Shown in pieces: positions 2,427 through 46,235 of a stretch of DNA of 52,893 nt (its first letter is position 1; the number at the start of each line of letters is the position of its first letter). Below the pieces are notes generated by a model. The model searched no databases, was not told the DNA's origin, and worked only from the letters and a program-made list of their open reading frames with translations. A program made the position numbers and the translations under genes. This DNA comes from an archaeon. GTDB taxonomy: Archaea; B1Sed10-29; JAJSAI01. The stretch is from NCBI GenBank assembly GCA_024274695.1, contig JAJSAI010000006.1, positions 1 through 52,893 of the forward strand. The letters run 5' to 3'.

Positions 2427-2600
2427 GGGGCCATAGGGTAGCCTGGTGATCCTACCGGCTTTGGGAGGGGAGACACCTACGGTTTCTCCCTCTACCCTCT
2501 TCCCTTCGAGGGAAATCAGAAATACTAACTGTAGGGGGAGAGACCAAGGATTTCCCAAAAACAGCCGGTGACTCCGGTTCGAATCCGGGTGGCCCCACCA
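2427..2600 (+). tRNA. tRNA-Pro(TGG) with 97-nt intron at 37/38 (2466-2562)
   Basis: Acceptor GGGGCCA/TGGCCCC, anticodon stem CCGGC/GCCGG, T-loop GGTTCGAATCC, encoded CCA; BHB with one G.A mismatch. Confidence 0.93.
2466..2556. mobile_element. Two inverted family A copies forming the body of the tRNA-Pro(TGG) intron (MITE-like)
   Basis: GGTTTCTCCCTCTAC (2481-2495) pairs with GTAGGGGGAGAGACC (2531-2545); left copy about 33/43 identical to the reverse complement of 46243-46285. Confidence 0.6.
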
Positions 2601-8804: not shown

Positions 8805-9139
8805 AAATGATAAGAGTTTACAAGATAAGCGCTGAAGCGCTCAAGAACGTGAAAAAAGTCCTGGAAGCACAGGAGACCGTGGACGAGCAGGGGAACCTGG
8901 AAAAGAACGAGTTCGCCCGGAACGGGTACACCCTGCAGAACGCAAGATCACTGGACCTAGAAGGAGAAGAGTACTACCTGTACATTGACGCCCCAGAAGA
9001 CTTCTGGGAAAGGAACGAGAAAAAACTGGAGATAGAAGGAGTCACAAGACTGGAAGGAGAAGAGTACGAAAAGGTCAAGAACGCGTTCGAGAAAGGAAAA
9101 GAAGGAGTCGCCACAGGCATAGGAGCAATGTTCGGGTGA
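8801..9139 (+). CDS. Conserved archaeal hypothetical protein
   Basis: Overlaps trxB stop; acidic 112-aa protein ending GIGAMFG. Confidence 0.8.
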   Translation: MKMIRVYKISAEALKNVKKVLEAQETVDEQGNLEKNEFARNGYTLQNARSLDLEGEEYYLYIDAPEDFWERNEKKLEIEGVTRLEGEEYEKVKNAFEKGKEGVATGIGAMFG

Positions 9140-9169
9140 AAAAAGGGAGGCGAGACCCCCTTTTCTCAC

Positions 9170-9348
9170 GGGGCCGTGGGGTAGCCTGGCAGCCTTCCAG
9201 CTTCGGGAGGGAAACCGCCAGCGGGTATACCCGAAACCTTTGGTTCGGGATAATCCAAAAGGCGAAAGCCTTTTGGTATTTTCCTCTACCTTCCCGCGAC
9301 CGGAGCCCGGAAGAGCTGGCGAGCCGAGTTCAAATCTCGGCGGCCCCA
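9170..9348 (+). tRNA. tRNA-Pro(CGG) with 106-nt intron at 37/38 (9208-9313)
   Basis: GGGGCCG/CGGCCCC acceptor; CCAGC/GCTGG; BHB helix TTCG/CGGA; exons nearly identical to tRNA-Pro(GGG) at 44683. Confidence 0.94.
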
Positions 9349-9408
9349 TCACCCTGGCTGGAAAGAAACCATTTAAAAACCAGAAAGTGCCAACTATAAA
9401 CTGCTCGC

Positions 9409-9533
9409 CCCGTGGTAGCATAGTGGTAGTGCGCCCGGCTGTAGTAGAGTCTCTCGCGCTCTCGCGCGAGACCCCCTGGGGAAACCCTGCGGGGACCGGG
9501 AGATCGCCGGTTCAAATCCGGCCCACGGGACCA
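9409..9533 (+). tRNA. tRNA-Tyr(GTA) with 50-nt intron at 37/38 (9445-9494)
   Basis: C1-G72 acceptor CCCGTGG/CCACGGG; CCCGG/CCGGG; BHB helix CTGT/GCGG. Confidence 0.95.
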
Positions 9534-9542
9534 TTTTTTCAA

Positions 9543-9617
9543 GGGCCTGTAGATCAGTGGAAGATCGCCTGCCTTGCACGCAGGAGGTCGGGGGTTCAAA
9601 TCCCCCCGGGTCCACCA
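9543..9617 (+). tRNA. tRNA-Ala(TGC)
   Basis: G3.U70 pair; CCTGC-CTTGCAC-GCAGG; CCA. Confidence 0.96.
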
Positions 9618-9658
9618 AGGGAAACCTCCAGCGGGTTTCCTCTACCTTCCAGCAACCG
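9618..9658 (+). repeat. Family A tRNA-associated hairpin element
   Basis: AGGGAAACCTCCAGCGGGTTTCCTCTACCTTCCAGCAACCG; 36/41 identical to the reverse complement of 41011-41051; matches both parts of the Pro(CGG) intron. Confidence 0.85.
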
Positions 9659-9660
9659 AA

Positions 9661-9720
9661 AATAAGGGGCCGCACCCCCCTTATCAACCCTCCTCACCAG
9701 AACGAGGGGCCGCACCCCTC
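9661..9720 (+). repeat. Two related hairpins ATAAGGGG-CCGCACC-CCCCTTAT and GAGGGG-CCGCA-CCCCTC
   Basis: Shared AGGGGCCGCACCCC core; related copy at 44759-44794. Confidence 0.7.
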
Positions 9721-9738
9721 TGAAACCAGAGCACGGGC

Positions 9739-9814
9739 GGGTCCGTGGTCTAGTGGCTAGGACGCCACCCTCACACGGTGGAGATCGGTGGTTCAAATCC
9801 GCCCGGACCCACCA
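9739..9814 (+). tRNA. tRNA-Val(CAC)
   Basis: GGGTCCG/CGGACCC; CCACC-CTCACAC-GGTGG; CCA. Confidence 0.96.
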
Positions 9815-9844
9815 AAACAAAAAAACCAGCACACCAGAAAAACA

Positions 9845-9922
9845 GGTCCCGTAGTCTAGTCCGGCTAAGGATATCGGCCTTTCGAGCCGAAGACCCGGGT
9901 TCAAATCCCGGCGGGACCACCA
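9845..9922 (+). tRNA. tRNA-Glu(TTC)
   Basis: GGTCCCG/CGGGACC; TCGGC-CTTTCGA-GCCGA; CCA. Confidence 0.96.
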
Positions 9923-10219: not shown

Positions 10220-10323
10220 AGCCCCGTAGTCTAGCGGCCAATCCTGTTCGGCGTTGCCAGCGGGAGCCGAAAGGATGGCGGGCTTTGGACCCGCAGACGG
10301 CGGTTCGAATCCGCCCGGGGCTA
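10220..10323 (+). tRNA. tRNA-Gln(TTG) with 31-nt D-loop intron (10241-10271)
   Basis: Comparison with Gln(CTG) shows a 31-nt insert; CGGC/GCCG central helix with CA|A and AA|A bulges; GCGGG-CTTTGGA-CCCGC. Confidence 0.92.
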
Positions 10324-10346
10324 CTAGAGAGGCTGTCAAGCGGGAC

Positions 10347-24505: not shown

Positions 24506-25936
24506 ATGGACGTGAGCATGTTCACGAAAATAAACGACTACGAGTGGATGATCCCAAAAAAAGGAGACATGAGAGTCCCAGGAATAGTGTTCGGGGACGA
24601 ACCAATAATCAGGGACCTGGACGAGAAAGTATGGGAACAGGTATCAAACGTGGCAACACTCCCGGGAATACAGCTCGCGAGCATTGCCATGCCTGACGCC
24701 CACTGGGGCTACGGTTTCCCTATAGGAGGAGTGGCCGCATTCGATCCCAAAGAAGGAGGCATCATCAGCGCTGGAGGCGTCGGATACGACATCAGCTGCG
24801 GGGTCAGGACCCTGAAAACGAACATGAAAAAAGAAGAAGTGCTCCCAAAGCTTTCGGAGCTGATGGAAGAACTCTTCAGAACCATCCCTGCAGGCCTGGG
24901 GTCAGAGGGAGAAATAACCCTCACAAAAGACCAGGAGGACGAAATGCTCGCCAAGGGAGCGAAATGGGCTGTGGAACAAGGTTACGGGACAGAAGAAGAC
25001 CTGGAGTACACCGAGATGCACGGGACAGCGCCTGACGCTGACCCGAGTAAGGTAAGCGATCTCGCGAAAAAAAGAGAAAAGAAGCAAGCGGGAACCCTGG
25101 GCTCAGGAAACCACTACCTTGAAGTCCAGTGGGTGGAAGAGGTTTACGATCCTGAAATAGCCAGGATATACGGCCTGGAAAAGGACCAGATCCTAATAAC
25201 ATTCCACTGCGGGTCAAGAGGACTCGGGCACCAGGTCGCCTCAGACTACATGAAAGTGCTGGACCAGGCAGCGCCGAAGTACGGGATAAAACTTCCAGAC
25301 AGACAGCTAGCGTGCGCGCCAATAGATTCCCAAGAGGGCAGGGACTACTGGCAGGCCATGAACGCAGCAATAAACAACGCGCTCGCGAACAGGCAGATAA
25401 TATCCCACCTCGCGCGGAAAGCGTTCAAGAGAGTGTTCCCGGACGCCGAACTGCCCCAGTTGTACGACACGAGCCACAACACGTGCAGGAGAGAAGAGCA
25501 CGTAGTGGACGGGGTCAAGAAGATAGTGTACGTGCACAGAAAAGGAGCCACGAGTGCCCTGGGGCCCGGCCGGCCGGAAATCCCGAAAGCATACATGAAC
25601 GCGGGCCAGCCTGTGCTGATAGGAGGAACCATGGGCACGTACTCCTACATCCTCGCGGGAACAAGAGAAGGGATGGAAAAAGCGTTCGGAAGCGCGTGCC
25701 ACGGGGCGGGCAGGAGGATGAGCAGGGCGAAAGCAAAGAAAACGTGGAAAGGAGAACAAGTCATCAGGGACCTCGCAGAAAGGGGGATAATAGTGAAAGC
25801 CCACTCCTTCAGAGGAGCTGCAGAAGAAGCCCCCGGAGCGTACAAGGACGTCAGACAGGTCGTGGACGCGGTGCACAACGCGGGCCTCGCCAAGAAGGTC
25901 GTAAGAGTAAGGCCGCTCGGGGTAGTGAAAGGGTGA
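24506..25936 (+). CDS. rtcB: RNA-splicing ligase RtcB
   Basis: MPDAHWGYGFPIGGV, GVGYDISCG, GSGNHYLE, HRKGAT, HGAGR, EEAPGAYK. Confidence 0.98.
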   Translation: MDVSMFTKINDYEWMIPKKGDMRVPGIVFGDEPIIRDLDEKVWEQVSNVATLPGIQLASIAMPDAHWGYGFPIGGVAAFDPKEGGIISAGGVGYDISCGVRTLKTNMKKEEVLPKLSELMEELFRTIPAGLGSEGEITLTKDQEDEMLAKGAKWAVEQGYGTEEDLEYTEMHGTAPDADPSKVSDLAKKREKKQAGTLGSGNHYLEVQWVEEVYDPEIARIYGLEKDQILITFHCGSRGLGHQVASDYMKVLDQAAPKYGIKLPDRQLACAPIDSQEGRDYWQAMNAAINNALANRQIISHLARKAFKRVFPDAELPQLYDTSHNTCRREEHVVDGVKKIVYVHRKGATSALGPGRPEIPKAYMNAGQPVLIGGTMGTYSYILAGTREGMEKAFGSACHGAGRRMSRAKAKKTWKGEQVIRDLAERGIIVKAHSFRGAAEEAPGAYKDVRQVVDAVHNAGLAKKVVRVRPLGVVKG

Positions 25937-41003: not shown

Positions 41004-41051
41004 AGCCGGCCGGTGGCAGGAGGGTAGAGGGAACCCGCTGGAGGTTCCCCT
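41004..41051 (-). mobile_element. Family A element, inverted, between duplicated tRNA-Ser 3' ends
   Basis: Direct repeat TCCC(A/G)CTCCCGGCGT at 40989-41003 and 41052-41066; reverse complement 36/41 identical to 9618-9658. Confidence 0.75.
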
Positions 41052-41090
41052 TCCCGCTCCCGGCGTCATTAACAGCGCCCGCGGAGGACA

Positions 41091-46067: not shown

Positions 46068-46235
46068 GCGGGAGTCGCCTAGCCAGGTATGGCGCTGGAC
46101 TCAAGGAACCCTTTCCGCTGGGCGCGCGAAAGCGTTCACGGAAAAGTTGGGGACATCCAGTGGCTTAGTGTGTTTCGCCCTCCGAAGGACGGAGCGCGAG
46201 AACTGCCGCCGAGGGTTCAAATCCCTCCTCCCGCA
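46068..46235 (+). tRNA. tRNA-Leu(CAA) with 49-nt 37/38 intron (46106-46154) and ~35-nt variable-arm insert (about 46169-46203)
   Basis: Removing both inserts gives a body colinear with tRNA-Leu(TAG); CTGGA/TCCAG anticodon stem. Confidence 0.9.

Follow-up and report, generated by a model that had tools for sequence, protein, structure and literature searches.

We describe here a 54-nucleotide (nt) double hairpin, hereafter DH, that lies within the intron of a tRNA-Pro(CGG) gene of an archaeon of the GTDB lineage B1Sed10-29 (JAJSAI01; GenBank assembly GCA_024274695.1). The gene occupies 9170-9348 of the forward strand of contig JAJSAI010000006.1, whose full 52,893 nt form the window that we analyzed (contig C32 of this genome, an assembly of 825 kb in 32 contigs that is 91% complete and in which ARAGORN finds introns in many tRNA genes). 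DH interrupts a hairpin-forming repeat, family A, that makes up the rest of the intron body. It represents a repeat family that is new, restricted to this lineage and strict in its choice of target, and it belongs to a known kind of sequence, miniature palindromic mobile DNA. In the reading that we consider probable, DH is a non-autonomous, gene-less DNA element, specific to this lineage, that targets family-A hairpins and is spliced out of the precursor tRNA as a passenger.

We propose the following sequence of events. DH would enter, as DNA, the stem of the family-A hairpin that forms the body of the Pro(CGG) intron, an insertion that would add 53 nt plus one T without a longer target duplication and that would be guided by the folded target rather than by a sequence word. 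Once transcribed within the pre-tRNA, DH would be a passenger without a role of its own in the tRNA, lost with the intron as the splicing endonuclease acts on the outer bulge-helix-bulge (BHB) motif and RtcB joins the exons.

The nested insert and its tRNA intron

When positions 9227-9280 are taken out, a 52-nt intron is left whose first 41 nt match an uninterrupted family-A copy at 9618-9658 in 38 of 41 positions (18/19 and 20/22 on the two sides of the insert), and each of the two intron halves has three matches in the window, compared with 0.11 and 0.01 expected from shuffled sequence. These halves, at 9209-9226 and 9281-9302, run on without a break at 9619-9658 (+) and 41011-41050 (-). A preliminary description of the window, made from its letters alone, had claimed just such a nested insertion, and the claim is borne out. 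It had also placed family A inside the intron; family A is indeed present there but, because it accounts for 41 of the 52 nt that remain after removal of the insert, it is the body of the intron and not a guest in it. The insert has ATACC...GGTAT ends and two hairpins, again as first described. The hairpins, of 9-11 bp each, follow one another in tandem and are joined by short linkers rich in AT. Because the junction is ambiguous by one T, the length of the insert is best given as 53 nt plus one T. As RNA it folds with -24.0 kcal/mol and a z score of -5.0, a stability that none of 200 shuffled sequences reached, and as DNA the z score is -5.9.

ARAGORN, run with introns allowed, places the 106-nt intron after position 37, and its model, once the intron is taken out, is that of a complete tRNA whose anticodon loop measures 7 nt. 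In a genome of the same genus (G001), tRNA-Pro(CGG) has no intron; the exons share 97-98% identity with that gene and, when joined, differ from it in only two letters. The tRNA model of Rfam does not report the gene. Because the minimum-energy folds lack the BHB, we turned to a geometric scan, in which a script tested all position pairs of the pre-tRNA for two 3-nt bulges that are set apart by a 4-bp helix and adjoined by a further helix on either side. The canonical cuts, between 9207 and 9208 and between 9313 and 9314, ranked first. Their motif has a 5-bp outer helix, a central helix UUCG/CGGA with one G-U pair (9202-9205 with 9308-9311), 3-nt bulges at 9206-9208 and 9312-9314, and an inner helix of just 2 bp. 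Enforcing this motif costs 12-15 kcal/mol over the minimum-energy fold with or without the insert, so fold prediction neither supports nor separates the long and the short form of the intron.

DH begins 19 nt from the 5' cut and ends 33 nt from the 3' cut, leaving every part of the splice geometry untouched; the outer BHB is intact, as had been noted from the start. The genome carries a splicing-endonuclease gene (PF01974, 110.6 bits, contig C23:7541-7801) and an RtcB ligase gene (PF01139, 576 bits, window 24638-25933). The 106-nt intron has the hallmarks of an archaeal BHB tRNA intron and its excision is predicted. Because the outer BHB is undisturbed and no convincing BHB flanks the insert, DH is presumably removed together with the whole intron in a single step, and the two-step excision previously entertained finds no footing. 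That the splice signals are left alone would also explain why DH is tolerated.

The double-hairpin family and its target

An initial BLAST search returned partial matches at the ends of four contigs, and reading these revealed complete double hairpins. A covariance model built from five DH copies (R1) matches nine places in the genome, with 42-79 bits on the better strand. The four copies at contig ends are identical and lie in an identical repeat of ~130 nt, so that they may represent only two genomic copies; the number of distinct copies is therefore at least seven. The earlier suggestion that the insert belongs to a repeat family separate from family A thus proved correct. All nine copies stand in one orientation inside a family-A-like hairpin, between a GG(G/T)T.. 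3' arm and a (T)CCC.. base, that is, on the 3' strand of the host stem and 4-5 bp above its foot. The hosts comprise four subfamilies (A1, A2, A3-like and A4), and copies without DH are known in this genome for A1, A2 and A3. A sequence model of the short family-A form (R2) finds seven such copies, and so about half of the ~14 family-A copies in the genome bear DH. When we searched the 31 species-level genomes of the phylum for an A1 or A3 hairpin split by any 40-70 nt, three pattern matches emerged, and the Pro(CGG) copy described here is the only genuine case.

Across six distinct copies, 94.7% of DH stem cells form standard pairs and six of the 22 stem pairs are altered on both sides. This count is conservative because one divergent copy is off by one column in the second hairpin. 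None of 500 column shuffles matched the value for pairing or for covariation, and shifting the pairing partners left 29-58% paired; substitutions that break a stem occur in two copies. The ATACC/GGAT.ATCC/GGTAT frame and the AT-rich linkers vary little or not at all. One pair of copies shares 98% identity within DH and 69% in the flanks, which already differ where they meet the insert (ggtttc before and cccc after the insert in one, tgttcc and tcccc in the other). Between host subfamilies, DH copies are 62-79% identical and their flanks 47-74%, DH being closer than the hosts in most pairs. The 5' flanks end in GGGT, TTTT, TTTC or TTCC and the 3' flanks begin with (T)(T)CCC, which makes them alike without being constant.

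The preliminary description also held that the intron had grown by stacking of tiny elements, with the spliced-out region as a safe haven. The first half of this proposal agrees with a later insertion into an existing family-A intron, as judged from an empty site and from short introns in three other genomes (below). The second half is unsupported, because DH follows family-A hairpins wherever these are located: only one of seven distinct copies is intronic, the other six lie behind tRNA 3' ends, and two of the three family-A introns of this genome, those of Pro(CGG), Pro(TGG) and Arg(TCG), are free of DH. Thus, what DH tracks is the hairpin, whether or not this lies in an intron.

The long A2 form, comprising host hairpin and DH (L021:170-253, from contig C27), folds (z score -5.3) as a cloverleaf-like four-way junction that is closed by a stem of 6 bp and bears three hairpins. 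It matches neither the tRNA model nor any other Rfam model, and we regard its cloverleaf-like shape as a by-product. At E values up to 1, Rfam returned only tRNAs and chance-level matches for the window region and for four DH or family-A loci. Three other readings were dropped on inspection by eye: a CRISPR repeat, as the contig-end copies are not spaced arrays; a kink-turn, as DH lacks the tandem G-A signature; and an Xer/dif site.

Coordinates of DH, its tRNA gene, its host elements and related features (window coordinates unless a contig is named)
Feature	Position	Strand	Basis
tRNA-Pro(CGG) 5' exon, last nt at position 37	9170-9207	+	ARAGORN
Intron, 106 nt, canonical 37/38 position	9208-9313	+	ARAGORN; top BHB geometry of the scan
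Family A1, 5' part: 5' arm, loop and start of host-hairpin 3' arm	9208-9226	+	pattern match, 0 mismatches; 18/19 versus 9618-9636
DH insert, 53 nt ATACC...GGTAT plus one ambiguous T	9227-9280	+	R1, 72.9 bits; fold z -5.0; skipped by X4 contig
DH hairpin 1	9227-9251	+	fold; 4/11 pairs changed on both sides across copies
DH hairpin 2, GAAA loop	9253-9279	+	fold; 2/11 pairs changed on both sides
Family A1, 3' part: remaining 3' arm and pyrimidine-rich tail	9281-9302	+	pattern match, 0 mismatches; 20/22 versus 9637-9658
Intron 3' end, with central-helix 3' strand and 3' bulge	9303-9313	+	BHB scan
tRNA-Pro(CGG) 3' exon	9314-9348	+	ARAGORN
DH copies	C32:9227; C19:11203; C26:46712, 46816, 47295; ends of C19, C22, C26, C27		R1
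Uninterrupted A1 directly behind CCA of tRNA-Ala(TGC)	9618-9658	+	pattern match; R2, 43 bits
Uninterrupted A1, reversed, behind tRNA-Ser(GGA)	41011-41051	-	pattern match; R2, 46.1 bits
Uninterrupted A3, 5' end of tRNA-Pro(TGG) intron	2466-2506	+	R2, 41.5 bits
Block behind tRNA-Lys(CTT)	C19:11100-11396		
Block behind tRNA-Arg(CCG)	C26:46690-46968		
Block behind tRNA-Arg(TCT)	C27:2442-2698, into the end of C26		
Second intron family, in Arg(GCG), Leu(CAA), Arg(CCT) and Leu(TAA)	C22:10208-10441; window 46068-46235; C12:21449-21582; C19:24758-24898		

Gain, loss and competing explanations

DH is confined to a single lineage. We searched with R1 in the 31 phylum genomes (E up to 0.05) and in a set of 150 relatives, and in each set the genome studied here was the only one to contain DH. 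Family A, by R2, occurs in eight of the 31, with 39 matches outside this genome, four of them in G001. As the preliminary description had advised, we compared orthologous Pro(CGG) introns. Family A is uninterrupted in the 51-nt A1-type intron of G021, in the 66-nt A3-type intron of G027 and in the 139-nt intron of G030, which holds two A3 copies, and DH is absent from all three; the G001 gene has no intron, at a locus that is syntenic and whose neighboring gene is 71% identical in DNA.

A search of public sequencing runs listed no RNA run with this sequence and no run with more than 0.10 of the sampled words. Four coded runs were aligned on 8900-9900. A 220-nt contig of run X4 joins 9225 to 9280 and thus reads as the intron minus exactly the 54 nt. 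It is ~96% identical to the window, with eight other letters and three gaps over 9280-9470, and its aligned parts (194 + 26) add up to its whole length. A contig of run X1 skips the entire 106 nt of the intron. A fourth state of the locus appears in a contig of run X6, where a mini-intron of ~16 nt stands at the same position and consists of the first 3 and last 8 nt joined by AAACC. No public run aligned on this segment reaches into the interior of DH. Wider pattern scans yielded no further true copy among the matches listed, a result that stops short of absence. A metagenome pattern scan returned 11 loci, all matching the second hairpin alone, as the pattern was designed to do, and scoring at best 35.4 bits compared with 42-79 bits in true copies. 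A scan of genome contigs for the DH architecture gave at least 120 stretches, of which 80 among the matches listed were scored and reached at most 26.4 bits. In viral contigs, none of 80 architecture matches among those listed was an R1 match, and the exact family-A1 core pattern had no stretch at all.

Taken together, the DH-free relatives, the empty site and the identities of DH compared with those of its hosts lead us to favor repeated, exact gains of DH in this lineage, the direction of change being deduced from these comparisons. In this reading DH would have moved as DNA, and the constancy of its place in the host stem suggests that the folded target was recognized. The alternative that the long form is ancestral and that the short copies are products of precise deletion appears very improbable. 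A stable hairpin set between the same letter (T..T) could be lost by slippage, and short and long forms do coexist within subfamilies. Nevertheless, the short form is present in eight of 31 phylum genomes and DH in one, DH-free A1 and A3 copies are present in further families of the phylum, and an ancestral long form would need at least three separate exact deletions here in addition to loss everywhere else. An ancestral long form with no further copy of the insert had been named at the outset as the finding that would overturn the nested-insertion claim; what we find is other copies and a widespread short form.

Several points weigh against our preferred reading of DH as a mobile element that targets family-A hairpins. 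No Y1 transposase (PF01797), OrfB_IS605 (PF01385), DDE_Tnp_1 (PF01609) or reverse transcriptase (PF00078) was found in the 91%-complete assembly, and the TnpB zinc ribbon (PF07282) gave only a sub-threshold score of 20.4 bits. Each host subfamily has its own DH variant, a pattern that also fits long forms copied whole or transfer by recombination between paralogs, and independent insertion events may number perhaps just four. No constant 4-6-nt target word stands beside DH, and what the flanks share is a structural position. The BHB is not the minimum-energy fold of the pre-tRNA, in either the long or the short form of the intron. The empty site is a single contig of depth 2.3 in an assembled public run, known from its alignment. 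This contig, with its low depth, and the scarcity of independent events are the weak points of the argument for gain. The assembly contains one tyrosine recombinase, of the Phage_integrase family (contig C4:13346-13828).

Three further explanations need to be weighed against insertion as a mobile element. In one, which we judge unlikely, DH entered one family-A copy once and then spread between paralogs by recombination or gene conversion through common flanks. Such spread would suit the homologous position of all copies in related hosts, the subfamily-specific variants and the lack of the searched transposase families. However, the pair of copies with 98% identical DH and 69% identical flanks would require a conversion tract that ends exactly at the insert, and A1 and A2 flanks are 59% identical, which leaves little homology for recombination. 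It seems quite improbable, too, that the double hairpin is a selected RNA or DNA module of long family A, either a protein platform or a tRNA-shaped fold that steers trailer or intron processing. The compensatory changes that keep both hairpins, the near-invariant linkers and frame, and the cloverleaf-like junction of the long A2 form would all suit selection, but palindromic mobile DNA keeps its hairpins as well. Moreover, two copies carry stem-breaking changes, no Rfam family matches, a close relative has a Pro(CGG) intron without DH, and DH was not found in the 149 other genomes, which include G001 with its family-A copies and tRNA introns of its own.

Finally, the 54 nt could be an intron within the intron that the splicing endonuclease excises first, an idea to which we give almost no credence. 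A weak BHB-like arrangement does exist, with cuts after 9230 and 9281 and a GUAU/GUAU helix of two G-U and two A-U pairs. Yet these cuts are shifted by 4 and 1 nt, remove 51 nt and do not restore the family-A sequence; the arrangement needs both DH hairpins unfolded, its letters are unpaired in the A2 copies, and the scan yields 27 candidates of this kind within 179 nt. The empty site, moreover, is seen in DNA contigs. As no BHB at the insert junctions restores the host sequence, we reject the nested-intron reading, which is close to refuted.

Host elements, implications and known counterparts

Family A itself appears to have moved around tRNA genes. Its presence in different tRNA introns, patchy among relatives, is the pattern on which mobile tRNA introns of the type described by Fujishima et al. 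are recognized. Additional DH-free copies in this genome are an A2 copy in the tRNA-Arg(TCG) intron and A3 copies at two intergenic sites. The stretch 9616-9662, with the A1 copy behind tRNA-Ala(TGC), is itself a recent insertion or deletion of 47 nt, since G001 lacks it at the syntenic site and a contig of run X5 has TAG in its place. Behind tRNA-Ser(GGA), at 41004-41066, a near-copy of the tRNA 3' end, 15 nt long, comes after a reversed A1 copy; in the tRNA-Ser(GGA) of G030 (contig C8, L058 133-237), a reversed A1 copy is flanked by a duplication of ~62 nt that extends from the T-loop into the 3' flank.

Six of the seven distinct DH copies sit in blocks of ~190-270 nt directly behind tRNA-Lys(CTT), -Arg(TCT), -Arg(CCG) and -Lys(TTT). 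Three blocks have a common layout, in which the tRNA is followed by a forward family-A copy with DH, a spacer, a reversed A3 copy, TTCG and a second tRNA 3' end that duplicates the last 19-20 nt of the tRNA with CCA and a T-run. Similar units, with a reversed tRNA 3' fragment, CGAA and family A, are found in G019, in G030 and behind the tRNA-Ser(GGA) of the window. The blocks resemble a tiny integrated element whose att-type direct repeats lie in the common TGGGCCCG acceptor sequence. The distal fragment behind tRNA-Arg(CCG) has the T-stem of tRNA-Arg(TCT), an arrangement that would fit recombination within the TGGGCCCG common to these acceptor stems. In the tRNA-Lys(CTT) of G001 (contig C15, L187:1560-1750, minus strand), one intron lies in the D-loop and one, of another family, in the T-loop, the latter placed exactly where the present genome has its family-A/DH block, and the distal 3' fragment of that block is orthologous to the true 3' exon of G001. 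The Lys(CTT) block may, on these alignments, be a former T-loop intron with a duplicated 3' exon. As T-loop introns still in use, the blocks were rejected: no splice geometry joins the first T-loop to the duplicated 3' fragment, in a scan that recovered the canonical tRNA-Arg(TCT) intron as a control.

Other introns of these genomes deserve mention in their own right. A second intron family (..CCCTTTTC.. ..GCGTTYACGGAAAAG..) occupies canonical introns of four tRNA genes, and tandem repeats are present inside that of Arg(GCG), which is 158 nt long. G001 has two introns that the genome studied here lacks, an additional T-loop intron in tRNA-His and a D-loop intron in tRNA-Ala (L002, contig C8 reverse 1630-1915, compared with window 9409-9617). 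Intron content thus turns over fast within one genus, the Pro(CGG) intron being missing in G001 and the extra introns of G001 being missing here. At window 10220-10324, ARAGORN calls an Arg(tcg) gene with a 19-nt intron, a stretch that reads more like tRNA-Gln(TTG) with a longer D-loop intron; the Rfam tRNA model scores just 32.2 bits at 10263-10323.

The Pro(CGG) locus bears on the rise, spread and lengthening of archaeal tRNA introns. Close relatives present three states of one tRNA gene, namely no intron (G001, X1), a one-repeat intron (X4, G021) and the nested repeat of the window, so that one step of intron growth becomes datable and its rule readable. More broadly, DH joins the gene-less elements that take another element's palindrome as their target, here in an 825-kb genome. 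Because none of the four searched transposase families was found, a host enzyme that moves such hairpins would be approachable by experiment. There are practical consequences as well. Inserts of this kind conceal tRNA genes from standard scans, as the silence of the Rfam tRNA model on Pro(CGG) illustrates, and DH-bearing repeats break assemblies, as four contigs (C19, C22, C26 and C27) end in one, which leaves the copy number uncertain.

Tiny mobile inserts of two hairpins, found in non-coding and intronic DNA and sometimes nested, are familiar from fungal mitochondria as double-hairpin elements and GC clusters. DH is like these by form only, as they are organellar and unrelated in sequence and host. 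Among better-defined classes, the miniature inverted-repeat transposable elements of DDE transposons, marked by terminal inverted repeats related to a resident transposon and by a target duplication of at least 2 bp, do not accommodate DH, whose inverted ends measure 5 nt, whose junction repeat is at most 1 nt and whose genome has no PF01609 match (other DDE families were not searched). REPINs are described, in the parts of PMC3337134 and PMC3116915 on which we draw, as extragenic bacterial elements whose two REPs are inverted relative to each other and whose partner is a RAYT gene in single copy. DH likewise is short and non-autonomous, has two palindromic units and persists in one lineage; unlike those of a REPIN, its units are in direct order, differ from each other and are aimed at another repeat, and the genome lacks a PF01797 match. 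The REPIN/RAYT system therefore fits less well than the two systems discussed last.

For the host element, the nearest parallel is with the BHB introns of Thermoproteales, which are near-identical in different tRNA genes, patchy in distribution and presumed to have spread at the DNA level (Fujishima et al. 2010, as summarized in PMC4090602). Family A, in Pro(CGG), Pro(TGG) and Arg(TCG), behaves like these transposed introns, as far as that summary describes them; unlike them, it also occurs outside introns, behind tRNA 3' ends and beside duplicated tRNA 3' fragments. The passages of PMC4090602 on Thermoproteales introns make no mention of an element nested in one of them, and in the portions of the literature that our search covered there was no description of a hairpin insert inside an archaeal tRNA intron.

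The closest described form is that of the terminal-only palindrome-associated transposable elements (PATEs), which, according to the relevant passages of PMC3119063, are 52 bp long, derive from and share their ends with IS200/IS605 elements, insert beside a 4-6-nt target word and are possibly mobilized as such. DH likewise has two near-terminal palindromes in direct order, the hairpins being set 3 nt in from the two ends, lacks long terminal inverted repeats and makes no target duplication beyond a junction repeat of at most 1 nt (T). Its flanks resemble one another without a constant word. No Y1 transposase or TnpB gene was found in its genome (PF01797 and PF01385 without a match, PF07282 sub-threshold), so that the kinship with IS605 that marks a PATE is not seen here.

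In behavior, the closest described element is SMR-A of Haloquadratum walsbyi. The sections on it in Dyall-Smith et al. (2011; PMC3119063) report an element that is free of a transposase, makes no target duplication and strongly prefers to insert inside the near-terminal palindromes of PATEs and IS605-type transposons, and they call its mobilization enigmatic. Both SMR-A, so described, and DH are gene-less archaeal inserts in the palindromes of other mobile elements, without target duplication. Unlike SMR-A, DH measures 53-54 nt, has inverted ends of only 5 nt and a tRNA-linked hairpin as its target, and no IS605-type gene was found alongside it. We raise, as a tentative extension, the possibility that DH is a hyperparasitic, structure-guided element that recognizes the folded stem of mobile family A and enters it at a set depth and with a set orientation, presumably by way of a host replication, repair or recombination enzyme. 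Together, DH and family A could then be two layers of one system in which archaeal tRNA introns are built up by stacking, and DH might be the counterpart, in this lineage, of the haloarchaeal SMR-A.

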